This document shows, in pieces, positions 4,830 through 62,961 of a stretch of DNA of 63,504 nt (positions are counted from its first letter, which is position 1; each line of letters starts with the position of its first letter). Origin of the DNA: Perkinsus olseni. Taxonomy: Eukaryota. The position numbers were made by a program, and so were the translations under genes. The DNA lies in contig JABANN010000136.1 of the NCBI GenBank assembly GCA_013115125.1, forward strand, positions 1-63,504, in the 5' to 3' direction. The notes under the pieces were generated by a model, which saw nothing but the letters and a program-made list of their open reading frames with translations, made no database searches and was not told where the DNA came from.

Positions 4830-7800
4830 TCACTGGGCCGCTCCCGGATCATGTTGAGACAGCTGACTCAAGCTTGAGCTCGTCTGGACGCGCCGTGCAT
4901 CTTTAGCTAGCCGGCGGATGACCAACTGCCGATAATCGTCGCTGCAGTGGGATATGTCGCAGTGAGGAAGCAAACTGTTCTGGCTGTTCATCCATGCCTT
5001 GGCTCCGAGCAACGACCTAACAGCAAACATTAGTACTTAGAAGCTACATCCAATCTAGCTATAAACCCTGATAATCATAAATCTCTATCATGTACTTCAA
5101 GACGCTCACCGTACGCTCAATTCTTTTAATTACTAATACGAAGGGACATAACGGTCGAATCTCTTTCATGGGCCGCCACTTCCCTCAAGGCGGTAACGTT
5201 ATCATAATTCATCGCTCGGTACCGTCACATCGGGGCTCACCTGTGGACTGACGCTGAGATGCCGCTGAGAAGACCCCTCAAAGGCGAGTGTAGCATCATC
5301 ACAGCACTGCCAATTATAGCCATAACCATACCGAACGGTAAGCGGCACAGTACCAAGCCCGACACTAAGAGTATGTAGAATACGGGCTTGGACAGCGGGT
5401 CCCTGATAAGAGATGCACTCGCCGTAGATTGGTCGCATCACAAGCTCACCTCCACATGAGGATGTCCTCACCAAGGTCCAACGAATCAGCGAGAATCCTG
5501 AGTGGTCGCTGAAACCGTGCGGCTGTATCCTTCAGCCACGTAGGGGACAGTTGGGTGAACCTCCGCACTAAGGCGTTGATTGACTTCTCTGCGTCATCAT
5601 CATCATCGCCGTCATCTCCTGACAACAAGTAAGAAAGACTGCAAGACTCGCGATTCAACTCAAGAGCGCGAGGACGGCGAATCTGCATCCCGTCAGAGAC
5701 TCCAGCAGACTTGGCACCGCCAGGCTTTTGAGAGCCATCAATGTTCCTGCCAAGTTGGCTGTCTAAGGCGCGTCAATAAGCGAGGGGCGCTGTACGTTTT
5801 CACCGGCGGTAAATGACGGCCTCGACGCTGGCGTTGCACTATGACGAAGGGAATTGGTGTGAATTACTACCATCTTGGTCCAATGAAACGAAAGCCATAC
5901 TGCCATGCCTGTTGATGTTGGACTCTTGGTCGACCACCTTCTTGTAAGCAGACATCATCTTGTTACGTACCATCACGACCGCTACACCCCAGCACAGACC
6001 AGCGGGCCAGTACTCTACGAAGCAACTGAGAGGAAACTATTGCCACTACCAAGGCAACCACTCCAAGCGGGGGTGACCGACAACTAACGATGGCTGCAGG
6101 CCACGAGCACCCTCGGACTGCTCCCGAGATGAGAGTAGCTATGCAATCGCGTGTATTCATCAACCACTCGACAACCATTCATCAACCGATGAGCTCCGGG
6201 ATTCAACGAGCGATGTGTGAGTTTCGCCGTCGTGTTTTCATCACCCACGGTTATTACCATGCATAGAGGTAGGCGGCCCATACTAAGAGGGATTGCCACC
6301 AGCTGTCCCACCGGAATATAGGATAGACGAACCCCATGAGAAGACCCTTCAGTTGATCTGTCCATAAAGTCTCTAAAATATACCTGACAAACAGCTTCCC
6401 AACACGCAGCTGTGACTACATCCATGCCAATCACGGAGCGATCTTGGATACGTCAGCAGCCGTGCCCGTCAGCGTTAGTTTCCACGATAAAAGCGTCCAG
6501 ACATCCCAACGCTAACTGGTGAGGACCACCGCCGGCACTACATCCCAGGGCCATAAAGGGCATTGACGTCGAACTTAGGCTTGTCCTTAGGCTGGGATTC
6601 CATCAGCATATAATGCTGCATGTAAGCTGATACCTCCGAGGCCACTGTGTAGCTGAACTCAACTTCTAGTCGTACAGCGCCAGCCGGTTTGCCTGATGCA
6701 GTAGGGTTAGTGAGAATTGACACAATGGGCGGCATTACCCTGGTAGCGTAGCGGCACCCAACCGTCCACAGGCTCGTCACGGCGAAGGGTAGACAGGTCG
6801 AGGTCACCGTTACCAATGACGTCATCAGATGATGCTACATCACGGTCGAAACTGAGAAGATGACAAGCGTGGGGAACGAACCAGGGACGGCCGATGCACA
6901 AATGCCTACACTTCCACATGCAGCATCTGTCCCGGTGTTTTCAACACCATCGTTGAGCACCGGTAGTCCCACACTGGCTGCAACGTGTGCTTCAAAAATG
7001 GCGTCCGGCGAGTTATCTAAGAACCGAAAGACACGCGCTAGCTTCCCCAGAAGCGTCTTCAACCGGAATCCAACCAAGCGCGCTTGCACCCAAGAGAACC
7101 GACGAGCTCTGAGCAGTTCACAACAGAGACGCTCCTTGACATCCCGGATACTCAGCACACAGAATGACCCACCTTGTCCTTATTGACCCACAGGACACAG
7201 TAAGGATCAGAGCTCGACTTCCGACCAAAGACATTCGTGTCCGCTGCCCTCAGACCTCTTGCTTCGATGACCCGAACATTTAGCAACGCGTACAGGTCCC
7301 ATCCGAAGTGCACTGAAAGTAATGGCAATCAGTACACTGCCTCGACGCTCATCCACACCCCTCCGATGACGTACAGCACTAGCATTGTAACGAAGCTTCC
7401 GAATGAGCGAAAGTGTCTCTGCCTCTCCTGAATTTCAGGAGCACTTCCAGGATTCAATTTAACATGTACAAGACGATCCTGGGAGCACTCCTCTCAGAAC
7501 TCAGGAGAGGCAGTCTATCGAAGGCCCTATGGACCGTACACTACCTGTAGGGTTGTGCGGGTCGATGTACCTCTGGCCGTCCGACATAACCCTAGCCTTC
7601 CGCCATATGGTGGGCATTCTCCGCGGCTGATACGACGACACCGCCGCCGACTGCTGAACCGCTGGTACATCAGTAACCGCTGTACTCGGGGACTCGCTCG
7701 ACGACGAGACGCCCGACGCTGGAAGAGGCTTTGATTCTGATAACAGGAAGCCTGCCACCGCTCAGGCATTGAGGGATACCCACCTTGGGCTGGTGCTGAT

Positions 7801-25266: not shown

Positions 25267-28200
25267 TTACACGAGGAGTGGAAGCTTCGTCTCTTCCCCC
25301 ACACGACCCGAATACTGGGTTACATACACGCGTTCGTTTCGACGCTCCCACACCGTCGTGGAATCTTTGGGCTCTTGAGGAGGCCGAAGCTGGCGGAGCA
25401 CGTCTGCGGCCTGCTTGAGCAGAGACTCTCTCGCGTCACTAACACACCGCAACGCTAGCCAAGAAGGACCGCAGGGGCAAGATGGGGACCAATGGGCGAG
25501 TAGATCACCCGAAAGGATATCGAACAGCCAAATCCCTCCCACTCTGTCGCAAACAACGATCGCTTGACCACTGCCTGTCGGTGAGACACTCTGTAGAGGG
25601 AGCTGCGCACCCTTCTCCGAGGCAGACCAGGTGTACAGCACCGACATCCTTCCCTCACAATTACCACTGGCCGCTGAGAGCTGTGAGGTCGACTTACCAA
25701 AGTTGCGCTTCGACTCGCGTCGCGAGGGTACTCCTTCGTTCGGGGCACCGCTGAGTCCCTTGCTCGGAGCTTCGTGGTTCTGTTGATCAGTCGAGCTAAC
25801 GCAAACCACAGAGCCGGAGCCATTCAGAGTGTTCACCACAAGAAAACCATTATCGAGGTCCAACGTTATGGACTTGCTCCCTGTGTTAATCGACCGGTTC
25901 GCTCGATCCTCTGACCCTTGAGATACTCCGGGTGACAGAATGACGAGCGATGCCAAGGAGCCTCGCGTCTCCACCGGTGTTCGAAGTCCACCAGGCTGGA
26001 CTCGTTGCGACGGCTGCCAATCCGCGTCAAGAGGCCCGGAGCTGAACATGAGCACGAATCGGTCTGCAGTGTGCAAGTGCCCCGCAGAAGAGCGCCTTCT
26101 CGCTGCCGTAATGGGTCTACTCGCCCGCCACAAGGTGATCCGGTGAGACGAATCTACGCGATCATCGCCATGCAGCGCTGCTAAGTGAATTGCATCGGAG
26201 CCTGCTCGAGACGATACGACCGTTATATCAGTTATCCCTCCCCAGTCGAGTGCAACGTCCATGACTTCAAGGCAAGAAAAGGGTTGCAGGGCATACCTGT
26301 AGATCTTACCGTCCTCACATCCGCACAGCAGGGTGGCAGAGGAGGGTTCATGAGCAAGCGAGGTACAGGTCACGTGTTTCCCAGCTCGCTTCGACCCTGG
26401 ATGGAAGGCTCGGTAACACCTGGGCCGCCCTGAGCCGCCGTAGCCAGGGGTCGTGCAGAACAGCCAAACCGGCCCACCCTCGTTGGAGTCGGCGCATGAG
26501 GTACTAACTGCCAGAGTGGGTTTCGTGGCGGTAAAAGCTAATACTGCCTTCACGGGGCCTGGTGCAGCCACACTCAGGTCGTTACCGGAGCAGTCCACTC
26601 GATGATCAACAGCCTTCAACTCTACGCTCTCATGCAGTAGAGCAAGGGCTGCTAGTGACGGGTATCGCCGGGTGACAACACCGGAAAATTGGTCCACAAT
26701 CTCAATCAAACCATCTGCACGGCATACAACCAGCATGTCTCGACACCCACCGTCGAGTGAGGAGGACCATGCATGCACTTGTGCTATCGCCGGTGAGCTT
26801 TCCGTTCGACCTCCCACCAGAACCCTGCCGGGCTCTCCAGGCGACCAGCGATGTCGAACGATCTTATCCGTAGCGTCGAGAGTTACGAGCCTCCCTGAAG
26901 CCTCGTTGAGAGTCGCCCAGACGACTTTACTATTGCCGTCACTCGAGCCGGTACCGCCGAAAAAGGATCTCTTCTTCGCTCCGCTGTTAGGACGAATGAT
27001 ATAAAAGCGCTTCCCAGCAAGAAGCAAACGGTTGGGCAAGGGTGTTAACAGCCTGCCCAGTACATTCAACTGACCGAGTCCACCGGGTACCTCGCTGACG
27101 ATACTCAGCGAGGCCGCATCCCAGACTATGACACGCGAACCTTCATCGATACTAGCTACGTAGGTACCATCGAGGCACGATGCAACGTCTGATAGGGGTT
27201 TGGCATGGCCGACCAGTGGCTGCTTGAAACCTCTGAATGAGTTGGCCTCCAGCGTGTACGCCGCCAGGACCGTGCTGGACGTCGCTACGACCAGCAGCGA
27301 CTGCTGTGGCGAGTACGCGACACTTCGTACTACGCTCCTTCCTGACCGCCTGTCTAGGTCACGCCAAGGAGTCACTCTTGCCTCCACCATGAGCCTGCTG
27401 CTCTCGAGCAGACAGAAGGTTCCATCCGAGGATGTCGACAAGAGATATGCGGGAAGAGCGCCTCCTGCTGTTGGACTGGCCAGCCCTACAAGCCTCGTGA
27501 CAGGAGCACTGTGAATCCCTTCAAGTGACTTTGCATGGGAGAGTTCCGCCACTGACCCCGCTCTGATTTCTAGAGCAAAGAGGTGGAAGCCGCCACGCGT
27601 ATCACACATCAACCAAGGCGTCTCTTCGTGTTTGATACACACGATTTGGCTCAGTAGAATGCGCTCCTTCCTCTGACCAAGCGTCAGTTTATGACTTCCC
27701 ACAGCGCGGAAGGTGAAGCCGAATTTTGTTCGGGAGCTCCTCGTCTTGTCGCGTATCTTTTTTTCCTCTTTTATAGGCACCTTTTCCCAGGCACCAACGT
27801 AATTCCCAGCGTACAGCACACAAATGACCTGGAAGTGGCGAATAAGTTTCGAATTCATATTAAGCGTGCATTGCACCTTAGATTTGGGGTCAAAGCTCAC
27901 TGAGATGGCTTCGTTTCGAGTTGGGACAGGGACCTCAGCCTGCGCACGACATGCGCCGACGAGGCCCTAACGGCCGCTCCTACCGATAGATGCAACTCGT
28001 GGACTAATCCGAGTATGTCACGTCTCGCCAACCAAACGCTCACTGCCGAGCACCGACGATGAGTTGTTATCACTGCGTCCAGAGAAGCGCAGTACCTGGT
28101 AGGGCGCCCTCATCAGATTGGCTTTTTACAAGCCTACTGCAAGCTTGTGATGTATTCGCCCGGATGGGTCGCTGAGTCCACGAATTTTGGGCATTTACTC

Positions 28201-29134: not shown

Positions 29135-29718
29135 TTTACGCCGAGTTAATGCTGCTAGTCGTGAAACGCAGTCTCATTCCAGGCGAGCGCGTCGAGCTTT
29201 CGGCGAACAGAGAATTACTGGAAATTGTGGAGACCGTACGGCGCTTACGGTGGTGACGCCCCTGTAGGCCAGCGTTTATGATTGACATAATGCAATAGGC
29301 ATGGTCATACGAGCGGCTACCTTCAACAGCCTCGTTACTGTCATCTGCTGGCCTCATCGTGTCGTTGACTGCCTTCACTGCAGCACAGATACTCCTTTGT
29401 AACAACTCTTGTGCCAATCTCAGCGCTGTACGTTACACTACGTGACAGAGGTCTGCTAGAGTACTGAGTGCTAACTGGGAATATCGTTCTCCTGGGATGC
29501 GTAATTATTAGTGTCACAACGGATTTCTTCGCGTTAGTATTGATGATGACCATTCTGAGTTGCGTGTGCGTGCCTTGTGCAACGGTCCACAAGCGGGCTT
29601 GGGCAGGCACCGGTGTGCCTTGACAGGGATTGGCGTATGTGCGTTTATCGAACCAGAAACGTAGCTGTCATTCGAACGAGTATTGTCTTCTTGTCTCAGT
29701 GTATTTTCTTGAGTGGTA

Positions 29719-31632
29719 ATGTCGTCAGTATCGCCGTCCGTCAACAACAAGAGTAGTAATGGCGTCACTGTGACCACCGATGACTGCAGCAGCAGCGGGG
29801 ACCTGGTGTCCTGTCCTGGTGGGGTGTGCTCTATGCGACGACGATCGACGCAGGGTACTGATACGTCTATCGGGAGCAGCTCTGATGCAGCAAGCCCCCA
29901 TCAGAAGTTCGAACAGTCCGTGTCGCACGAGCGGGCATATCGAGCGCTGAAAAGGGAGAATCAGCCCGGCAGTCTGTTTGTTAGGGGCCGCCAGACTTTG
30001 ATAATCGACAGGAGGGACAAGAGCCGACATGGGCCGGAGAAGCTTCTGAAGGAGTACGAGTTGCAGAGGGTGATTGGTAATGGCTCTCAGGGGTCGGTGT
30101 GTGAAGCGGTTTGTCGTGCTACGGGTGACCACCGCGCCATAAAAATAATCCCAAAATGTGATGCTGTCCTCACGGGTGGGACGTGCAGTCTCGAAGAAAT
30201 CTCCATAGTCAATCGGCAGATGAAACGGGAGGTCGGCGCCATGGGTCGCCTCGACCATCCCAATATTTGTAAACTTTACGAGATCTACGAAGACAGTATG
30301 TCCTTCTATTTGGTCATGGAACTTTGCCGAGGTCCTGAGCTCACCGACTACCTCCTCAAGGAGCGCTACCTTTCCGAACCCGAAGCTGCCCGGATCCTCA
30401 GAGGTCTTCTTTCCGCCGTCAATTACTGCCACAGCAAGGGTATAATCCACCGGGATATTAAACCTGAGAATATCCTCTTCTCGACGCCCAACGTGAAGTC
30501 TCCAGTCAAACTCATCGATTTTGGCTTCAGCGCCCGGGTCTTTCAGAACTCCTGTGCACTGGGCTGCGATGAAGAGCATTCCCGCGAGATCGATCTGGGT
30601 ACTCGGAAAGTGTCACGGTTCGAGCTTCGGTACTGCGGTCTCCCCAAGTTTGACGCCGTCAAGGCTCAGCGGGAGGCCGTCAACAGCATCCCGCCAGGTG
30701 GAATCTCCCTGGTCAATGACTTCGGCAAGGGCGCTCAGAAGCTGCACGGTCTGGTCGGGACGCCCTACTACGTAGCGCCGGATATCATCGCTGGCCATCA
30801 GCATCACACCGGAATGGATATGTGGAGCCTCGGGGTTCTTTTGTTTGTACTGCTAGGCGGTTATCCGCCCTTCCGAGGAGCCACTACTGGGGAGGTGCTG
30901 GAGTCCATAACGAAGAGTCAGGGCGTGGAGTTCCCGGAAAAATGGTGGGGTGGTGTTTCGGAAGAGGCCAAGGATCTGATAAGACGGCTGATGGAGAGGG
31001 ACTGCAGCAAGCGGCTGACGGCGGCGGAGGCCTGGGAGCATCCCTGGATGAAAAGATACCGCCCGAATAGCGAGCTGGTCCATCTCAGTCCGGAGACCTT
31101 CGAGACCTTTGTCCATGCCAGCAAGTTGCGGAAGGTGGCAGTGAACGCCATCGCCTACAATCTGTCGGTCTGCAGCTGTGCCGAATGGATTCGGGAGATT
31201 TATCGGACCTTCGAAGCCCTCGATGTCACAGGATCGGGCACGATAACACTACCGGAGTTCCGCAGTGCTATGAAGAAGGCAAGGCCCGAAATGGGAGAGG
31301 CTAAGATCGACGAGCTCTTCGCGGGCATCGACACGGACGCCAGCGACGAGATCGACTATACAGAATTCCTTGCCGCTGCGATTTCCCAGGTTACCTTCTC
31401 CCGCATCGATCTGTGCAAGAAGGCGTTTAGGATCCTCGACCGGAAGCAGGATGGGAAGATTTCTTCCGATGAGTTGAGGCAGATCATGGGTATCACCCAA
31501 CGGGACGACTTGGACGAGGAGTCGGTGGCGGAGGTCATTCGGGAGTTCGACACCAACGGTGACGGCTTTATTGATTTTCAAGAGTTCCTTTCGATGATGC
31601 AATCGTACGATGTTGGCTCTTCTACGCCCTGA
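29719..31632 (+). CDS. CDPK: Calcium-dependent protein kinase (kinase + 4 EF hands), intronless
   Basis: GNGSQGSV, AIK, HRDIKPENILF, DFG, GTPYYVAPD, DMWSLGV. EF hands DVTGSGTITLPE, DTDASDEIDYTE, DRKQDGKISSDE, DTNGDGFIDFQE. Confidence 0.97.
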   Translation: MSSVSPSVNNKSSNGVTVTTDDCSSSGDLVSCPGGVCSMRRRSTQGTDTSIGSSSDAASPHQKFEQSVSHERAYRALKRENQPGSLFVRGRQTLIIDRRDKSRHGPEKLLKEYELQRVIGNGSQGSVCEAVCRATGDHRAIKIIPKCDAVLTGGTCSLEEISIVNRQMKREVGAMGRLDHPNICKLYEIYEDSMSFYLVMELCRGPELTDYLLKERYLSEPEAARILRGLLSAVNYCHSKGIIHRDIKPENILFSTPNVKSPVKLIDFGFSARVFQNSCALGCDEEHSREIDLGTRKVSRFELRYCGLPKFDAVKAQREAVNSIPPGGISLVNDFGKGAQKLHGLVGTPYYVAPDIIAGHQHHTGMDMWSLGVLLFVLLGGYPPFRGATTGEVLESITKSQGVEFPEKWWGGVSEEAKDLIRRLMERDCSKRLTAAEAWEHPWMKRYRPNSELVHLSPETFETFVHASKLRKVAVNAIAYNLSVCSCAEWIREIYRTFEALDVTGSGTITLPEFRSAMKKARPEMGEAKIDELFAGIDTDASDEIDYTEFLAAAISQVTFSRIDLCKKAFRILDRKQDGKISSDELRQIMGITQRDDLDEESVAEVIREFDTNGDGFIDFQEFLSMMQSYDVGSSTP

Positions 31633-52967: not shown

Positions 52968-54760
52968 CAGCATGAAGCGTGCATTACGCATATACTCTTA
53001 GCATTTCGGGTCGCCGTTCGCTTGAGCCGCTCTAAGAAGGTCTCACAGGCTCATTCGAAACCCAAGGAATTTATTGGAAATCGTAACAATTGACGCGGTA
53101 CGGTCAACTTTCGATATGTTGTTATGGTGGCATGAGCTCAGCGGCGCAGCACCACGCTGGTCCTGATCACATTTCGTACCATACGAGAGGCGCGTTGATG
53201 GCTACAAATTGCCTTCCTCAGGCCACACGAGAGCATTATGTTAACAAAGTATCAGCGAAACATTACAAGGCCATGATCGATAAATTCCGGTAGGCTCCTC
53301 CAACCTTTCTTTGGCGAGTGCATGCTGGTCTTGGCCTTTGCTCGTGTTTCTTCAGTGATACGTTCGACTCTCACCTCAAGGGGTTCCTGGGAGCACTTCA
53401 AAACCGTACAGCGGAGCGAGGCAGCGCTGGCGGGGCCTATGTTCAGAATTTGGCCCATCGATTAGACTACAATGAGTTCTACACGAAAATGTGAGTTCAA
53501 CTGGATGCTCGTTGCAGGCCCTTTCTCTGCGCATTTCACAGCCTTTGGGTGTTCGGGCGTCTAATGCTCATTTGGTCCGTAGGTACGGTTTCGATGTCAC
53601 TGAAAACTGGGGTACATGAATTAAACTCCTCGGAGGAAGCATGGAAGAAGTTGCATCAGTTTCAGCTGTTTTGGCCTCGTGTTGTAAGAGTGATAAGTCT
53701 CTTGGCACATAGTTATCTCGGGCGGCGATACTATGGTTCACATCTGATAGTCTTAATTGGTCGTCTGGGTTGAGTACCCATGCCCTAATTAAGAGACTAG
53801 TATCGCGTTTACTGTAGTTGGACTTTTTAGCACTGTTCACTTCGTTCCAAGTGGCATTGAGTTGTCAGAAGGAGGGACATCAGAGTGCACAGATGGGAGG
53901 GGCTCGGAGACAGAGAAGCAGAATCGATCATTCAGAAGTCTATTCGACTTAGGGTGAGGCGGTCGCTATGCCGGTGGCCGTCATCACGCTAGCGAGTAAA
54001 GACAGCAGTTTGGCGTTGTTAGGATGGTCGAAATATGTACGTACAACGAGGTGGCGGAATGGAGAGGTCGGTGGAGTGGCGGGTCCGGTCGGGAGTTCAA
54101 TTTCGCCAATAGGGCTCCCGGTTTTAGGACTAGGGAAGAGAATTTTGCCTTCAAGAGCATCTGTATTGGGGACGTCTTCGCGGTAACTGGCCGCTGTAAT
54201 GGCGCCTTAACGTCATTTTCCATCCTTCCACCTCGATCGATCATCGGGGCGCGCCCTTGAGGAAGCCCCGGTTCCCTCGAGCGGCTCGTTTTTCCAAATT
54301 ATGGAGCTGCCACCCTTACCTGGCATGCTCTCATTCGGGGTTCCTCCGCCACGCTTGGTGGGATGCCGTCACAGATACACGCCCCTCGCCGAGGGGCCCT
54401 TGGCTATTCAATACTTAGCGCCCCGGCTGGCCTTCTCCATTGCGCCTGATGTGGACCACAAACTATCCCGCAAACTCGGACTCTGCCTCCTTTCGGGTGT
54501 ATCCAAGAGGGGCTAGGAAGATCCTGGAAAGCTGGACGTATCGACGGAAAGAACTACGCGCTACAGAGGCGTAGTGACGGTTTACCTGATTCCCTCTCCC
54601 CGAGAGAAGAAAGGGAATCTTCCTCCGCCCCCCCATTCGATGCATTACGCAGCTTCTGTGCAGCGCAGACTTCGTTAACGAATTCGGCTAGCGTGAACGC
54701 ATTCTGGATTAGGGCTCAACCCTGTCGAGGAGTAATGATCTAGCTTTGAACCACTCTTCA

Positions 54761-55735
54761 ATGGCCTCCGCGAATGCGTGTCGATGCGTCGCCTTAGTGA
54801 GTATCCTATTGATACATTTCTCCGAGGCTACCAACTTCAGACAACAGGAATTGCTGTATGGAAGAGCCCACGGTGATGGAGCGGAGTATGTTTTCGTAGC
54901 AAGAGACAAAGTCCCCATCAGCGACATCAGCACGGCTCATCGATTACAACTAACCAGGCATGACGCAGACTTTTTCGGAAAAGTCAGGTGTCAAGCCAGT
55001 GGGGATCAGCTAGAGTGGACTGTGTTGCATACAATTAGTCTTCCACTGCACAACTCCTGGCAGAGTAATCATGATGTTGTGACCAAGGCCAGGATTTACC
55101 GTCTGAAAGATGGTGAGACTTCGGAGTACATTGCTGACGTCGTTAAAGGCGAAAGATGCTTCGATAACGTTCGTGAAAGGAAGAATTCTGATAGCGAGGA
55201 AAAGTACGAGGCCGCACCAGAGAGCATCGAACGCGAGTTGCATCTGATCTGCCTGGGCGGCTTCTCTGCACTTCATCCCATCACTGACTTGTCGGTGCTG
55301 GATGGCAATTACACCGGTACCAGGCAGGGAAGGGAATCCTGGTTCGATTTTAACAAGGGTAAGGTTAGGGACGCGAAGCTCACTGTGAAGGAGATCGACA
55401 CGATGCATTTTAATGTAATTCACTACCCGCTTTGCGATGGAGTGATACTTGCCGAAGTGGCAGGGTGGATGGCGTCCATCGAGAAACCACCTTCCTATTC
55501 GCTTTTGAGAAGATCAAAGGTTCAGAGGCAACAGGGCTGGAGTTTTGCTTCGCGGAGAAGGAGACGTCAAAGAGCCGCCGCCCCTGGTGATGAAGGGGCT
55601 GGTCTACTAGACGATGATGATGAGTCGAACGCGCTCTGCAGGGCTAAGCATGTGAGAAGAAGGCTCAGTCACGATGTCCTCTACAACTGGGACTGTCACT
55701 TGCCCAATGACTTCATGCTGAAAGTACGGGTTTAG
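54761..55735 (+). CDS. Secreted family protein, copy 1 (intronless, intact)
   Basis: Signal-peptide-like MASANACRCVALVSILLIHFSEA; family motifs FRQQELLYGR, AAPESIERELHLICL, DGNYTG, YPLCDGVIL, GAGLLDDDDESN, WDCHL. Confidence 0.88.
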   Translation: MASANACRCVALVSILLIHFSEATNFRQQELLYGRAHGDGAEYVFVARDKVPISDISTAHRLQLTRHDADFFGKVRCQASGDQLEWTVLHTISLPLHNSWQSNHDVVTKARIYRLKDGETSEYIADVVKGERCFDNVRERKNSDSEEKYEAAPESIERELHLICLGGFSALHPITDLSVLDGNYTGTRQGRESWFDFNKGKVRDAKLTVKEIDTMHFNVIHYPLCDGVILAEVAGWMASIEKPPSYSLLRRSKVQRQQGWSFASRRRRRQRAAAPGDEGAGLLDDDDESNALCRAKHVRRRLSHDVLYNWDCHLPNDFMLKVRV

Positions 55736-57314
55736 CCTTATATTGGAATTGTGTCACAATTTTTGTGCCTGTGGATAGTCCCGCATGATGGTACCGCGGA
55801 GGATAATAAGCCTCCTGATAATTTCGAGTACGTATAAGTTGATCCAGTTTATTTTTGTATCTTGATCGTGAAGCATCATTGTTTATCGTTGAATGAGAGG
55901 ATTTGTGCGCGTAGGTTGGCTGTTATTAGAGCTGCGTTCACAGTCTAGAACCACTTCTTGTTTGGGGAGGTCTTAGCCGTTTGCCCCCCACCTGGTGAGA
56001 ACTAGGGAGGCCTTCTGAGTACCCGCAAAGCATGACCCTGGGAGCGAAAGGCTTTTGAACTACGAATCCATGCACTCAGTAGGCTACCTACTGTATGCAC
56101 TGCACTTCACTGAGAATCATAGTGAGTGTTTATCTATGAGAGTATGTTACAATTTCATTACCGAGAAATCACACATCTCGTTCTGCACAGGCGGCCTGTG
56201 AGAGGCTGAAAGAACAATGGCGAAGCCTCGCAGAATAGGAGAAATACTCGAAAAGTGATCGGCAAGTTTCAACCTTCCGGCCAGCTTTCATTCTCGTTAC
56301 TATTGGGCTAGAAGGGCAAACATGGTCTGCTGTCTTCTACTTGGACCATCGCATGATGTTCCGCATAGGAGTTTCAGAGTGCTTCGCATCTGTCGGGCAT
56401 GCCATGGCCCGGACGAGGGTCAATGGTACAGTGGCAGCTCGAGCGCTTTCGTTCTGTACGCCTTTGACTCAAAAAGGTTCCAGTCGTATGGTCGCAACTC
56501 GCACAATGTTAACTCGGTTCACGAAACTATTTTGATGGGAGCCGCTACGCAGGTTGTATTAAATGAACGAAACACCCAATATAGACCTGGTAACCGTACT
56601 ATAGGAGTACGATGGAGGACGAACGTAACAGATCGTACTACAGCAATACAGCAGCGACTAATACGTCAATGCAACTAGCGCTAGAGCGACAGCAGAACCG
56701 TGCACAAAGACAACAGTAGCACAGTCGAATCTCATCATCTTGCTGCCTTAGCGACTCTCTACTTCATGCCGAAACCGGCACACCGCTAGGGGTTGACACG
56801 GCAGAAGACTTCACCATTCAAAAGTCTATTCGGTTCAGGGTGAGGCGGCCGCTATGCCGGTGGCGGTCGAGGATATCATATGAGCGAGTAAAGGCAGCAG
56901 TTTGACGTTAGGGTCGAAATAGGGGCATCCAACGAGTTGGCGAGTAGAGAGGGCAGCTTAGTGGCGGGCCCAACAGGGAGTTCAATTGAGCCAAAAACCT
57001 CTCAGTTCCGTGACTAGTTCATAATTGAGAAAGACAATCCCCCTAGCGACGGCGATCTCGTGCTTCGGTATGCTGGAATTGTGCGTCCACGATACTCCCC
57101 TTGCTTCCACTTCGATCGATCATCGGGGTGCGTCCTTTGAGTTGAGGAATCACCGGCTCCCTCGAGCGCCTTGGATTTCCTGAAATTCCCCTCTCTATGC
57201 ATCACGCAGCTTCTGTGATCCTCAAGATACGCTAGACGGATCCGGCTAGCGTGAACGCATGCAACCTCAAGATGCGTTGATAACGAAGGACGATCTAGCT
57301 GCGAACCTTCTTCC

Positions 57315-58304
57315 ATGGCCTCCTCGAATCTCCTCTTCAACAGTACATTCCGGCGCGTCACCTTGATGAGTATTCTGCTGGTATACTTCACCGGGGCCAC
57401 ACAGTTCAGACAGCAAGAGCTGCTGTATGGACGGGTACACGGTGTCGGAGCGGAGTACTTTTTTATACCGAGAGACGAAGTCCCCATCCCCGACATCGCC
57501 ACTGCTCATCGACTCTACCTAACTGACCATTACGCTCTCTTCGAAGGGAAGGTGAGGAGCCAAGCGAGGAGGGATCAGCCTGACTGGACAGATTTGGACA
57601 CAATGAGTTTCCCGCTGCACAACTCCTGGCAGAGTAATCATGACGTTGTGACCAAGGCTAGGATTTACCGTCTGAAAGATGGCGGAACTTTGGAGTACAT
57701 TGCTGACGTCGTTAAAGGCGAAAGATGCTTCGATAACGTTCGTCAAAGGAAGGATTCTGATAGCGAGGAAAAGTACGAGGCCGCACCAGAGAGCATCGAA
57801 CGCGAGTTGCATCTGATCTGCCTGAGCGGCTTCTCTGCACTTCATCCCATCACTGACTTATCGGTGCTGGATGGTAATTACACCGGCAGCCGGCAGGGAA
57901 GGGAATCCTGGTTCGAATTCCGTAAGGGTAAAGTTGCAGACGCGAAACTCACAGTAAAACATATCGACAAGGATTTTTTCTGTGCGATCTACTACCCGCT
58001 TTGCGATGGAGTGATACTTATCGAAGCGCCCGGGTGGCGGAAGTCTATCGAGTAATCGATTCACTATTCGATTCTGAAGAAATCGAAAGTCCAGACACAA
58101 CGGGGCTGGAGACTTGCTTCGTGGCGGAGGAAGAGTAAGAGAAAATTCTCGAGTGGTGAAGAAGGAGCTGGTCTGCTCGACGATGATGACGAGTCGAATG
58201 TGATTTGCGGTGCTAAGGACGTGAGAAGGCGGCTCACCCGTGATACCCTCGATAAATGGGACTGTCATTTGTCCGATGACTTCGCGCTCAAAGTACGTAT
58301 ATAG
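57315..58304 (+). pseudogene. Secreted family protein, copy 2, with premature TAA at 58053-58055
   Basis: GAG TAA TCG here versus GAG AAA TCG in copy 3. The homologous frame stays open to TAG at 58302-58304. Confidence 0.85.
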
Positions 58305-59908
58305 ACGGGCAGAGAGACTTGTTAATCCTGTAGATTTCTGTGCTTACAAAACGTTGTTTGAAGTGAAAGAGACGACGTTATGGAGGATGAACCTGACGAG
58401 AATAATAAGCCTTATAGCAATGTCTAATACGTAAAAGTTCTCTCTCTTTTCTTAGTATGTTGATCGTGAAGCATTGCCGTTCATCGTGGAGTCAAAACGT
58501 TTGTGCGCGAAGGTTATCTGTCATTCATCTGGGCTGCGTTCAGTGATACGTGTCGCGGCGACACTGTCGCCGTACAACTCGAACTAGATGCGCAACACAA
58601 ACCGTGGGTAAGCTGGACAGTAATAGTTGTAGCGTAGGACGATCGGACCTCGAGTCAAGGAGGCTCGAACCGCAAACTGAATGCAAACTCTGAATGATCT
58701 TCCAACGTCTACCAAATCCAGGGAAACCTCAAGCTTAGGGGCACGCAAGTACATAGCTTGAGCGAGGCGAACCGTTGTACCAATACAAAGGCGAGCGAAG
58801 GTAACACGAGTTCCTTCCACTCACGGTCGACTCCCATCCCAAGGGATTCTTGGAAGCACTTTGAAATCGAACAGCGGAGCGGGGCAGCGCTGGCGGGGCC
58901 TATGCTCAGAATCTGGCCCATCGATTAGACTAAAACGAGTTTTACTCGAAAATGTGAGCTAAACTGGATGGACGTTGCAGATCCTCTCTCTGCGCATTTC
59001 ACAGCATTCAATCTTGGGTGTTCTCGAGTGTGGTGTTCGCTCTCGCAGGTGCGGTTTTGGCGTCACTAACAACTAGGGTACATGAACCAAACTCTTCGAG
59101 GAAAGCATTGCAGAATCAGTTACATTTGTCTTATCTCGTGTTGTAAGAGTGCACCGATGGGAGCCGCTAAGGGTTGACACGGCAAAAGACTTCACCATTC
59201 AAACATCTATTCGGTCTAGGGTGAGGCGGCCGCTATGCCGGCGGTGGTCGAGGATATCGTATGAGCGAGTAAAGGCAGCAGTTTGACGTTAGGGTTGAAA
59301 TAGGGACATCCAACGAGTTGGCGAGTACAGAGGGCAGCTTAGTGGCGGGCCCAACAGCGGGTTCAATTGAGCCAAGAAGGCTCCCGTTTTATGATTAAGG
59401 AAGACAATCTCGCCTTAAAAGACGCCAATCTCGTGCATGTCAATTCCTCCTGCTTCCACTTCGATCGATCATCGGGGTGTGCCCTTCGAGTTGAAGAAGC
59501 ACGGGCTCCCTCGAGCGGCTTGCATTTCCCTGGTTGCTCCTCTCTTGGAGGTGTCGCTCTTCCTTAGGATTTGGCATCCCTCATTACTCGCGGTGAGATG
59601 CAGTCACAAGAGGGGCCAAGAAGCTCCTTGAAAGCTGAACGCGTCGACAGACGATCAGCGACGTAGCAATAGTTCATCCGATTCTTCTCTCCCTTCCCGT
59701 TCGATGCATGACGCAGCTTCTGTGCTCGGTGAGATGCGCTTGACGAATAAGGCCAGCGTGAATGCAGGTGAATGATGATTGAGTCCTAAGACTTACATTT
59801 GCATGCGTTCACGCTACCCTAATTGAGGCTAGTTAGCTCGATAAGGCTCTTAACCCCGTCAACGATGCGTTGACAATGAATCTTGACCTGGTTTTGAACC
59901 CTTCTTCA

Positions 59909-60898
59909 ATGGCCTCCTCGAATCTCCTCTTCAACAGTACATTCCGGCGCGTCACCTTGATGAGTATTCTGCTGGTATACTTCACCGGGGCCACACAGTT
60001 CAGACAGCAAGAACTGCTGTATGGACGGGTACACGGTGTCGGAGCGGAGTACTTTTTTATACCGAGAGACGAAGTCCCCATCCCCGACATCGCCACTGCT
60101 CATCGACTCTACCTAACTGACCATTACGCTCTCTTCGAAGGGAAGGTGAGGAGCCAAGCGAGGAGGGATCAGCCGGACTGGACAGAGTTGACAACAATAA
60201 GTTTTCCACTGCACAACTCCTGGCAATATAATCATGACGTTGTCACCAAGGCCAGGATTTACCGTTTGAAAGATGGTGAAACTTCGGAGTACACTGCTGA
60301 CGTCGTTAAAGGCAAAAGATGCTTCGATAACGTTCGTGAAAGGAAGGATTCTGATGACGACGAAGAGTACGAGGCCGCACCAGAGAGCATCGAACGCGAG
60401 TTGCATCTGATCTGCCTGGGCGGCTTCTCTGCACTTCATCCCAGCACTGACTTGTCGGTGCTGGATGGTAATTACACCGGCAGCCGGCAGGGGAGGGAGT
60501 CCTGGTTCGAATTCCGTAAGGGTAGAGTTAGAGACGCGAAGCTCACTGTAGAAGAGGTATACAAGGAGCATCTCCACGCAATTTACTACCCGCTCTGCGA
60601 TGGGGTGATACTTATCGAAGCGCCTGGGTGGCGCAAGTCAATTGAGAAATCGCCTTCTTATTCAATTCTGAAGAAATCGAAAGTCCAGAAGCAACGAGGC
60701 TGGAGTCTTGCTTCGTGGCGGAGGAGAAGGAGTACGAGGAACTCCTCGCCTGGCGAAGGGGCTGGTCTGCTCGACGATGATGACGAGTCGAACGTGATCT
60801 GCGGTGCTAATCATGTGAGAAGACGCCTTACCCGTGATATCCTCGATAGATGGGACTGTCACTTGTCCAATGACTTCGGGCTCAAAGCACGGGTGTAG
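59909..60898 (+). CDS. Secreted family protein, copy 3 (intronless, intact)
   Basis: MASSNLLFNSTFRRVTLMSILLVYFTGA signal-like N-terminus. Full-length homology to copy 1. Confidence 0.88.
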   Translation: MASSNLLFNSTFRRVTLMSILLVYFTGATQFRQQELLYGRVHGVGAEYFFIPRDEVPIPDIATAHRLYLTDHYALFEGKVRSQARRDQPDWTELTTISFPLHNSWQYNHDVVTKARIYRLKDGETSEYTADVVKGKRCFDNVRERKDSDDDEEYEAAPESIERELHLICLGGFSALHPSTDLSVLDGNYTGSRQGRESWFEFRKGRVRDAKLTVEEVYKEHLHAIYYPLCDGVILIEAPGWRKSIEKSPSYSILKKSKVQKQRGWSLASWRRRRSTRNSSPGEGAGLLDDDDESNVICGANHVRRRLTRDILDRWDCHLSNDFGLKARV

Positions 60899-61970
60899 AC
60901 GAGCAGGAAGGACACTTGTTAATCCTGTAGATTTCTGTGCTTGCAAAACGCTGTTCGAAGTGAGAGAGACGAGTCGTCGTGGAAGATGATCCCAATGAGA
61001 ATAAGAAGCTTGCCGGTTATCTCAGATGTGTATAAGTTCGTTCCCCTTTCCTAGCATGTTGATCGTGAAGCATCATTGTTTATCGTTGAATGTAAGCGTT
61101 TGTGCGCGGAGGTTATCATTCAATCATCTGGGCTGCGTTCACAGTCCGGAACCATGTATTGCTCAAGGAAACCTTGGACTCACACACCCTTGCACTTGGC
61201 CGGTGAGAGCCGTTGTAATTGGCCTTCTTGAACTACGCCCGAAGCAAGCGCCTAGGGCGGAGGAGACGCCTATTTGGCCTTGGGTGAGGCGGCCGCTCTG
61301 CCAGCGGTCGAGGATATCACATTAGCGAGTAAAGACAACAGTTTGGCGCTAAGGTCGAAGTAGGGGCCGCCAACGAGTTGGCGAATGAAGAGGACAGTTT
61401 AGCGGCGAGCTCAACGGGGAGTCATGTTCAGCCAAAAATGCTCCCAGATTCATGATCAAGAGACATCAATCTCGGGGATGCTGCCCCGGGATAACCCCTG
61501 GAATCGTGCCTCCACGACATTTCCTATGCTTCCACTTCGATCGATCGCTGGGGTGCGCCCTTCGGGTTAAATAAGCACCAGCCCACTCGAGCGGCTCGGA
61601 TTTCCACGGACTACTCCCCTCTTGAGGCTGCCGCTCCTGCTTAAAATTCGGGATCCCTCATCATGCTCGGTGAGGTGCAGTCATAAGAGAGGCCAAGAGG
61701 TTCCTTGGAAGCGAGACGTGTCGACAGAAAGGACTGCGCGCAGCACCGGCGTAGTCCGAATCTTCCCTCCCTTCAACCACACAGCTCCTGTGCTCGTTGA
61801 GATACGCTGGACGAACGAGGCTAACGTGAACGCATGCAAGATTGAGTCTCAAGAGTTAATCTTGCATGGGTTCACGGTAGAAAATTGAGACAAGTTAGCT
61901 AGTTGGGGCTCTTAAGCCCGTCAAGGATGCGTTGACAACGAACCATGATCTAGCTTCGAACCCTTCTTTA

Positions 61971-62961
61971 ATGGCCTCCTCGAATCTTCTCGTCAACAGT
62001 TTATTCCGACTCGTCAAGTATCTTGGTGGGTATCGTACTGGTATCTTCCACCGGGGCGACTGACTTCAGACAGCAAGAACTGCTGTATGGACGGGTCCAC
62101 GGTGACGGAGCGGAGTATTTTTTCATACCGAGAGACGAAGTCTCCATCCCCGACATCGCCACTGCTCATCGACTCTACCTAACTAAGCATTACGCTCACT
62201 TCGAAGGGAAAGTGAGGAGTGAAGCGAGTGGGCACCAGCCAGACTGGACAGAGTTGGACACAATAAGTTTCCCACTGCACAACTCCTGGCAATATAATCA
62301 TGATGTTGTGACCAAGGCTAGGATTTACCGTCTCAAGGATGGTGAAACTGCGGAATACATTGCTGACGTCGTTAAGGACGAAAGATGCTTCGATAATATT
62401 CGTCGAAGGAAGGATTCTGATGTCGAAGAGTACAAGGCCGCACCAGAGAGCATCGAACGCGAGTTGCATCTGATCTGCCTGGGAGGCTTGTCTGCACTTC
62501 AACCCATCACTGACTTATCGGTGCTGGATGGTAATTACACAGGTATGCGCCAGGGAAGGGACTCCTGGTTCGAGTTCCGTAAGGGTAAAGTTGCTGACGC
62601 GACGCTCACTGTAAAACAGATCGACAAGGAATTTTTCTATGCGATCTACTACCCGCTTTGCGATGGGGTGATACTGGCTGAAGTACCAACCATGCACTCT
62701 TCTGTTGAAAAAGTGCCCACCTATACGATTTTTGAGAAATCGATGGTTCAGAAGCAACGCGTCTGGAGTCTTGCTTCGTGGAGAAGGAGACGTCAAAGAG
62801 CCGCCGCCGGTGGTGATGAAGGTGCTGGTCTACTAGACGATGATGATGAGTCGAACGCACTATGCCGTGCTACGCATTTGAGAAGGAGGCTTAGTCACGA
62901 TGTCCTCTACAACTGGGATTGTCACTTGCCCAATTCCTTCCTCCTTAAAGCAAATTTATAG
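61971..62961 (+). pseudogene. Secreted family protein, copy 4, with a +4 frameshift in the signal-peptide region
   Basis: The ATG at 61971 is homologous to copies 2/3 but out of frame with the 62023-62961 ORF (offset 52 nt): GTC AAGTATC TTG versus GTC ACC TTG in copy 3. Confidence 0.8.

Follow-up and report, generated by a model that had tools for sequence, protein, structure and literature searches.

The array and its four copies

The window analysed here, a stretch of 63,504 nucleotides (nt) from a Perkinsus olseni contig (GCA_013115125.1, JABANN010000136.1), carries four direct copies of one intronless gene with pairwise nucleotide identities of 79-90%. Copy 1 (54761..55735, +) is intact and encodes 324 amino acids (aa) with a signal-peptide-like N-terminus. 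Copy 2 (57315..58304, +) contains an in-frame stop at 58053-58055, which leaves an open frame of 246 aa. Copy 3 (59909..60898, +) has an intact frame of 329 aa and a further in-frame ATG at 59876. Copy 4 (61971..62961, +) has a frameshift at about 62016-62020 in the part that encodes the signal peptide; the remainder is one open frame. A sequence-only reading of this locus had proposed a mosaic array of secreted, lineage-specific proteins that diversify by gene conversion. The motifs it named are all found in the copies it assigned them to, and the single lesions it saw in two of the four copies, the stop in copy 2 and the frameshift in copy 4, recur in independent runs. The difference between the SNH and YNH motifs is a single codon, which qualifies its weight as a marker of mosaicism. 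The public gene model P0005, present on 2 contigs, places a short predicted intron across the frameshift of copy 4, so that the lesion is hidden.

The mosaic could be an assembly artefact, with alleles or collapsed repeats joined in tandem, and the fact that only short-read contigs are available, none of them across the whole array, speaks for this. However, the copy-specific contig pieces that were listed show 0 differences in runs X2 and X4, which come from two studies (one of the runs used as independent data may be the window's own source). The depth of the copies compared with the single-copy flank is 37-52 versus 47 in X2 and 77-96 versus 91 in X4; therefore, the copies are paralogues and not alleles. 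Contigs of the same two runs span the copy-4 frameshift region with 0 differences and 0 gaps. The copy-2 stop is the sole reading, with no alternative letter, in X2, X4 and X7, and it is missing from three contigs of the divergent run X8. In a second isolate the array is represented by a row of four full-length gene models (FOZ62_030081-030084), all of 324-329 aa and 72-93% identical to the window copies, with a different N-terminal third in the gene at position 4. The consecutive gene models FOZ60_005207, 5209 and 5210 are found in a third isolate, where the same contig carries the counterpart of the window's WD40 gene. An assembly chimera, which the earlier reading had named as a possible refutation if shown by long reads, is highly improbable.

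The array grew by duplication at the DNA level, since the spacers and an intron-bearing fragment of the neighbouring gene were copied along. The upstream neighbour encodes a gamma-tubulin complex component (Pfam PF04130). Its 3' end lies at 53294..53773 (+) and contains a GT..AG intron (53491-53582) which is skipped in a contig of run X7. A decayed duplicate of this 3' end, with the intron retained, is located between copies 2 and 3 (58823..59151, +) and is 78% identical to 53360-53692; 71 of the 88 aligned bases of its intron match those of the neighbour. The upstream spacer block at 56783..57187 (+) was duplicated with the genes and has counterparts at 53882-54300, 59146-59529 and 61264-61606, with 66-81% identity between units. 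Retroposition of the local copies was considered and is ruled out by the copied spacers and the intron-bearing piece of the neighbour gene. The interval between copies 2 and 3 also holds a dispersed repeat of about 256 bp (58564..58820, no strand assigned) that recurs on more than 10 other contigs. A 60-nt imperfect inverted repeat, 83% self-complementary, precedes copy 4 at a short distance (61821-61880), and the upstream region of copy 4 also resembles that of copy 3 (71-74%).

Introns are absent from all four copies, as had been noted, and the intronless state is family-wide, with the long matches in the genome being single frames. The idea that this absence is noteworthy in an intron-dense region does not hold. 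The window contains two other long uninterrupted frames, a WD40 protein of 899 aa (25267-27966) and a calcium-dependent protein kinase of 639 aa with a kinase domain and EF hands (29713-31632), and an excerpt of PMC3101222 gives introns in 69.2% of 104 Perkinsus genes; therefore, the missing introns are not special. An AG followed by a pyrimidine-rich stretch lies 12-31 nt 5' of the ATG in copies 1, 2 and 4 and in most of 12 other family starts inspected. The feature is absent at the aligned place in copy 3 (59885-59895), the frame of which is intact. It is possibly a trans-splice acceptor, but an AG at such a distance is common by chance.

Segment exchange among the copies and comparison with other isolates

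Similarity switches between the copies along the gene, as the sequence-only reading had claimed. The informative sites are clustered by pattern, with 71 sites falling into 23 runs against 36.7 expected (runs test, p=4e-5); the result persists when a single site is taken from each codon (p=0.002 for 62 sites). The longest identical runs over polymorphic sites are 48 for copies 2 and 3 and 18 for copies 1 and 4, both with p=5e-5. The corresponding values for the other pairs are 0.03 for copies 2 and 4, 0.02 for copies 3 and 4, 0.06 for copies 1 and 2 and 0.56 for copies 1 and 3, all six pairs being uncorrected. Copies 2 and 3 share a tract of 266 nt with 1 mismatch (57315..57580, +, and 59909..60174, +), whereas in the last part of the gene 74 of 394 columns differ between them. 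Judging from its sequence, this tract is a recent conversion. Copies 1 and 4 share a C-terminal segment type with an 18-site run (55556..55687, +, in copy 1 and 62782..62913, +, in copy 4), for which the approximately unbiased (AU) test rejects both other trees (p<=0.0003).

The tract shared by copies 2 and 3 opens exactly at the start codon, with 0 identical bases directly upstream (57315, 59909). This may reflect an mRNA-templated event or chance, which are indistinguishable here. A contig of run X7 at 59999-60207 differs from copy 3 in 5 letters; it could derive from a transcript of copy 2 or represent a further recombinant. Elsewhere the family has another tandem pair (L044:5397-5576 and 7348-7527, on G000:C1493), with 82% identity across 181 nt of the 5' end and only 28-55% over most of the remaining protein, possibly as a result of an older 5' conversion.

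The comparison with other isolates gives a similar picture. Copy 1 and its counterpart P0003 in another isolate are 93% identical overall and 100% identical at residues 201-331. At residues 141-200, however, copy 1 is only 83% identical to P0003 and 93% identical to the neighbouring copy 2. Copy 4 and its counterpart P0004 are 88-97% identical at residues 201-331 and 48% identical at residues 59-100, where the identity of copy 4 to copies 2 and 3 reaches 81-83%. The control WD40 gene of the window, a single control gene, is 89% identical to that of another isolate; therefore, the 48% segment of copy 4 is a replacement and not background divergence. P0010 joins a copy-4-type patch (residues 233-256) to a copy-2-type tail. 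A test of the pairwise homoplasy index (PHI) type, applied to 12 of the 14 sequences after exclusion of two partial ones, yields p=2e-4 whichever of three window sizes is used (92 informative columns). Within some segments, paralogues of the same genome are thus closer to each other than to their positional counterparts in the other isolate. The best matches of family members between isolates are mostly 81-95% identical, which brackets the value of the control gene; in the light of this control, unusually high polymorphism of the family between isolates was no longer considered.

The central block (60209..60508, +, which is residues 101-200 in copy 3) is homogenised in all four copies, synonymous sites included, with exact stretches of 47-78 nt common to copies. 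The pooled proportion of synonymous differences (pS) is 0.15-0.24 in the centre and 0.41-0.51 further 3', and the difference is significant in 5 of 6 pairs (p<=0.0022); therefore, the centre has been homogenised by recombination. In the variable patches the synonymous divergence is as high as the replacement divergence and there is no excess of replacements, so that these patches are old divergence which escaped homogenisation. The chief effect of conversion is the homogenisation of the centre. The tract, the runs, the synonymous sites and the cross-isolate comparison together support the earlier claim of segment exchange by gene conversion or unequal crossover.

A Perkinsus-specific family and its predicted product

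The genome search gives 27 family matches and three further places with a distant query. The 27 matches are a lower bound, and some are pieces of one gene. A single genome thus holds 20 or more members, and relatives occur in P. chesapeaki and P. marinus. All 7 close matches of the window proteins are P. olseni hypothetical proteins (6 named). A profile search against 1.84 billion representatives gives 42 matches. The 20 that were looked up comprise 10 from P. olseni, 7 from P. chesapeaki, 1 from P. marinus, 1 unnamed and 1 tick repeat protein. The tick protein (E 1.8e-4 over 59 positions) is the one named match outside Perkinsus among these 20 and is taken as chance. Several uncharacterised Perkinsus proteins belong to the same family (FOZ62_030081-030084, P. 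chesapeaki FOL47_005636 and P. marinus Pmar_PMAR010895) and are annotated as hypothetical only. In a quick tree the window copies form one clade inside a P. olseni expansion. Searches of the literature on Perkinsus gene conversion, secreted hypothetical proteins, effectors and locus names gave no description of the family, most subscription journals being outside the coverage. In one place (L021:81-1337, on G000:C2805) a family member is immediately followed by a frame for a tyrosine recombinase, and the public model P0054 fuses both.

The N-terminus is hydrophobic in 31 of the 32 members that have this region, and four cysteines are conserved (36/37, 36/36, 30/34 and 31/33 members). Together with the Perkinsus origin of the other named relatives that were looked up, this agrees with the proposal of a lineage-specific secreted family. 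Copies 1 and 3 have no further membrane segment and their C-termini are hydrophilic, as judged by hydropathy and without a dedicated glycosylphosphatidylinositol (GPI) predictor; the highest 19-residue hydropathy in the mature part is 1.2-1.5 in these two copies. In neither is the signal peptide closely followed by an RxLR or RxLxE/Q/D motif. With RxLR and PEXEL as commonly defined, such a pattern occurs anywhere in the first 90 residues of 6 of 37 members, at unaligned places.

The structure model of copy 3 is beta-rich, with a predicted local distance difference test (pLDDT) score of 78 and a predicted template modelling (pTM) score of 0.77. It consists of a larger domain (residues ~31-176), a six-stranded domain (187-256), a disordered loop (260-292) and a short ordered tail. 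The loop (60686-60784) has an arginine run followed by an acidic run, and a basic cluster is present in many P. olseni members; the loop could be a processing or polyanion-binding site. No Pfam family matches copies 1 and 3 (best E 0.18), and among the 37 members four families match one member each at E<=0.05. Searches of the PDB by sequence and by profile give no match (best E 0.056 and 0.11). The ESM Atlas gives no usable match for the whole protein or for residues 170-262, which is not proof of novelty, and Foldseek finds nothing at E<=0.001 in the PDB and BFVD. The homology to a housekeeping enzyme that would have spoken against the sequence-only reading is therefore not found in Pfam, PDB, Atlas or Foldseek. 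Glycines, cysteines and hydrophobics make up most of the nearly invariant positions, along with R119, T125, E127 and E164. No recognisable catalytic set is seen among them, but an enzyme of an unfamiliar kind is conceivable.

In VIA-align the best Z for the whole model is 4.7, and domain 1, which was compared only within the whole model, has no match above Z 4.7. Domain 2 (residues 176-262; pLDDT 65 for the domain model) aligns with NHBA at Z 6.1 (root-mean-square deviation 3.0, 78 aligned) and with fHbp at Z 5.8 (root-mean-square deviation 4.1, 84 aligned), values below the Z of 7-8 which is typical of the tool for models without a clear match. It superposes on part of the Neisseria NHBA, fHbp, TbpB and haemophore barrels and of the calycins (avidin, lipocalins) at Z 4.6-6.1. 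As in these eight-stranded barrels, a G-x-Y motif opens the first strand. However, the model has five or six strands, the identity is 4-17% and the Z values are in the generic range of beta-meanders. The product may be a soluble extracellular protein of two sheets, stabilised by disulfide bonds and bearing a disordered basic and acidic loop, and the chances are about even that it is a non-enzymatic binding protein in the parasite wall or at the host interface.

Loss, selection and the evolution of the array

The lesions look like recent losses because the second isolate has full-length models, the stop is absent in X8 and the RNA-like run X7 covers copy 2. Run X7 is taken as RNA by guess, supported by one spliced joint at the neighbour's intron. 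The X7 contigs extend over some of copy 1, over some of copy 2 including the stop, and also over spacer DNA at 56587-57255, so transcription of the stop-bearing copy 2 is only hinted at. Cover is absent in the 3' part of copy 3 and in most of copy 4, which is not evidence of silence. Other broken family members occur elsewhere in the genome, in line with birth-and-death loss. The signal peptide encoded at position 2 in the other isolate is 97% identical to that of the 5' tract, compared with 77% at position 3. This suggests that the tract passed from copy 2 to copy 3, and copy 2 was not necessarily broken by then.

With two of the four copies broken, copies 2 and 4 could be silent donors in a system of antigenic variation with an archive and an expression site, similar to VSG or VESA1. 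The match between the 5' tract of the intact copy 3 and copy 2, whose signal peptide is also that of the position-2 gene in the other isolate, would fit such a transfer. The broken copies nevertheless have full-length counterparts in a row of four consecutive models in another isolate, and the stop-bearing copy 2 is covered, with copy 1, by the RNA-like run. What is seen is therefore not a stable archive of silent genes or pseudogenes, and the suggestion that disrupted copies act as sequence donors is unsupported. Such an archive would also be tiny, the protein has no membrane or GPI anchor, and two samples (studies P1 and P2) are identical in the listed pieces, giving no sign of rapid switching. 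Bivalves are not known to have antibodies. An archive of this kind is very hard to reconcile with these observations.

An excerpt of PMC6684078 describes segmental gene conversion in the ves/VESA1 genes of Babesia bovis, in which short segments are copied from paralogues to give mosaic genes, and an excerpt of PMC3708902 describes mosaic VSG genes of Trypanosoma brucei in which segments are replaced by paralogue sequence. The Perkinsus array is similar in that segments are copied between paralogues. In both systems a large archive of silent genes stands beside an expressed member, the antigen is exposed on the surface and switching takes place during an infection, whereas the Perkinsus protein has no anchor and is under purifying selection. 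The array is not a member of the VSG/VESA1 systems, as neither an anchor nor a silent archive is found.

The selection data bear on a different possibility, that shuffling among intact expressed copies is itself selected because exposed loops in novel combinations would bind the defence proteins of bivalves or escape them. The family is secreted and lineage-specific and has expanded in P. olseni. Isolates retain a number of discrete segment types in different combinations, and the folds nearest to domain 2 are barrels from surface proteins with which bacteria bind host factors. All of this would suit such a role. However, the pairwise ratio of nonsynonymous to synonymous substitution (dN/dS) of the four copies is 0.29-0.36, and the ratio of the pooled proportions (pN/pS) over 8 segments is 0.18-0.55, with no segment above 0.55 (four recombining sequences, at the level of segments and not of sites). 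The divergence between isolates is about that of the control gene, lying on both sides of it, and the fold matches remain below the tool's typical values. Host-driven diversification therefore seems unlikely. The earlier inference that the exchange serves to diversify an effector or antigen is not supported, given these ratios and the lack of RxLR/PEXEL motifs and of a GPI or membrane anchor.

We favour, with a probability of about 0.7, an array of a Perkinsus-specific secreted family shaped by tandem duplication at the DNA level, recurrent non-allelic recombination and purifying selection. Whole units with their spacers were duplicated in tandem, and the gene centre has been homogenised among neighbours by conversion or unequal crossover. 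Old, diverged 5' and 3' segment types have been re-assorted between positions and isolates, with occasional loss of copies. The near-identical centre may seed new exchanges, and each copy would retain its position-specific 3' type while the centre and the 5' part are overwritten. The exchange appears to be the usual recombination between gene duplicates, not a system dedicated to surface-antigen variation.

Several points weigh against this interpretation. No read or contig spans the array and the contigs end at identical tracts; therefore, the phase of the 5' and 3' halves rests on the assembly. Both gene ends give one unrooted topology (1,4|2,3), so the expected switch of trees along the gene is not seen there. 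The topology (1,3|2,4) is preferred only at columns 601-705, marginally (AU p ~0.05) and in a segment picked post hoc, and the AU test on the central segment (301-600) rejects no tree. The mosaic signal is thus carried mainly by branch lengths and less by topology. Across the family, too, the centre is one of the better conserved regions (38-41% versus 17-48% in other segments); therefore, purifying selection contributes to the invariant block. The comparisons between isolates are at the protein level only, on 14 sequences, and it is uncertain which positional counterparts are orthologous to the two middle copies. Secretion is judged by hydropathy and not by SignalP or proteomics.

An excerpt of PMC2488372 describes tandem, intron-poor gene arrays in dinoflagellates. 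The Perkinsus array resembles these and other arrays in concerted evolution, being tandem and intron-free with slightly different copies, homogenised tracts and occasional loss; it differs in being small, with well-diverged copies (79-90%) and stable position-specific 3' types. What is found here is what a gene-conversion array should have: identity tracts, synonymous homogenisation, paralogues closer than counterparts (at the protein level) and true paralogues. Homogenised tracts and occasional loss are general features of concerted and birth-and-death evolution in tandem gene arrays. The Perkinsus array belongs to this ordinary class of tandem arrays under conversion; the process is known, and the family is not described in the literature searched.

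The array documents non-allelic recombination in Perkinsus, and it illustrates that public gene models can hide lesions. Few secreted proteins have been characterised in Perkinsus; a family with a confident model and no structural match is therefore a candidate set for the interaction between parasite and shellfish. A bolder view, which we regard as doubtful, is that this is a genus-wide family with a possibly new two-domain beta fold at the host interface, in which old segment types re-assorted round a homogenised core provide combinatorial variation selected by innate defences. If selection does act on the shuffled segments, the array would exemplify how a parasite varies in response to a host that has no antibodies.

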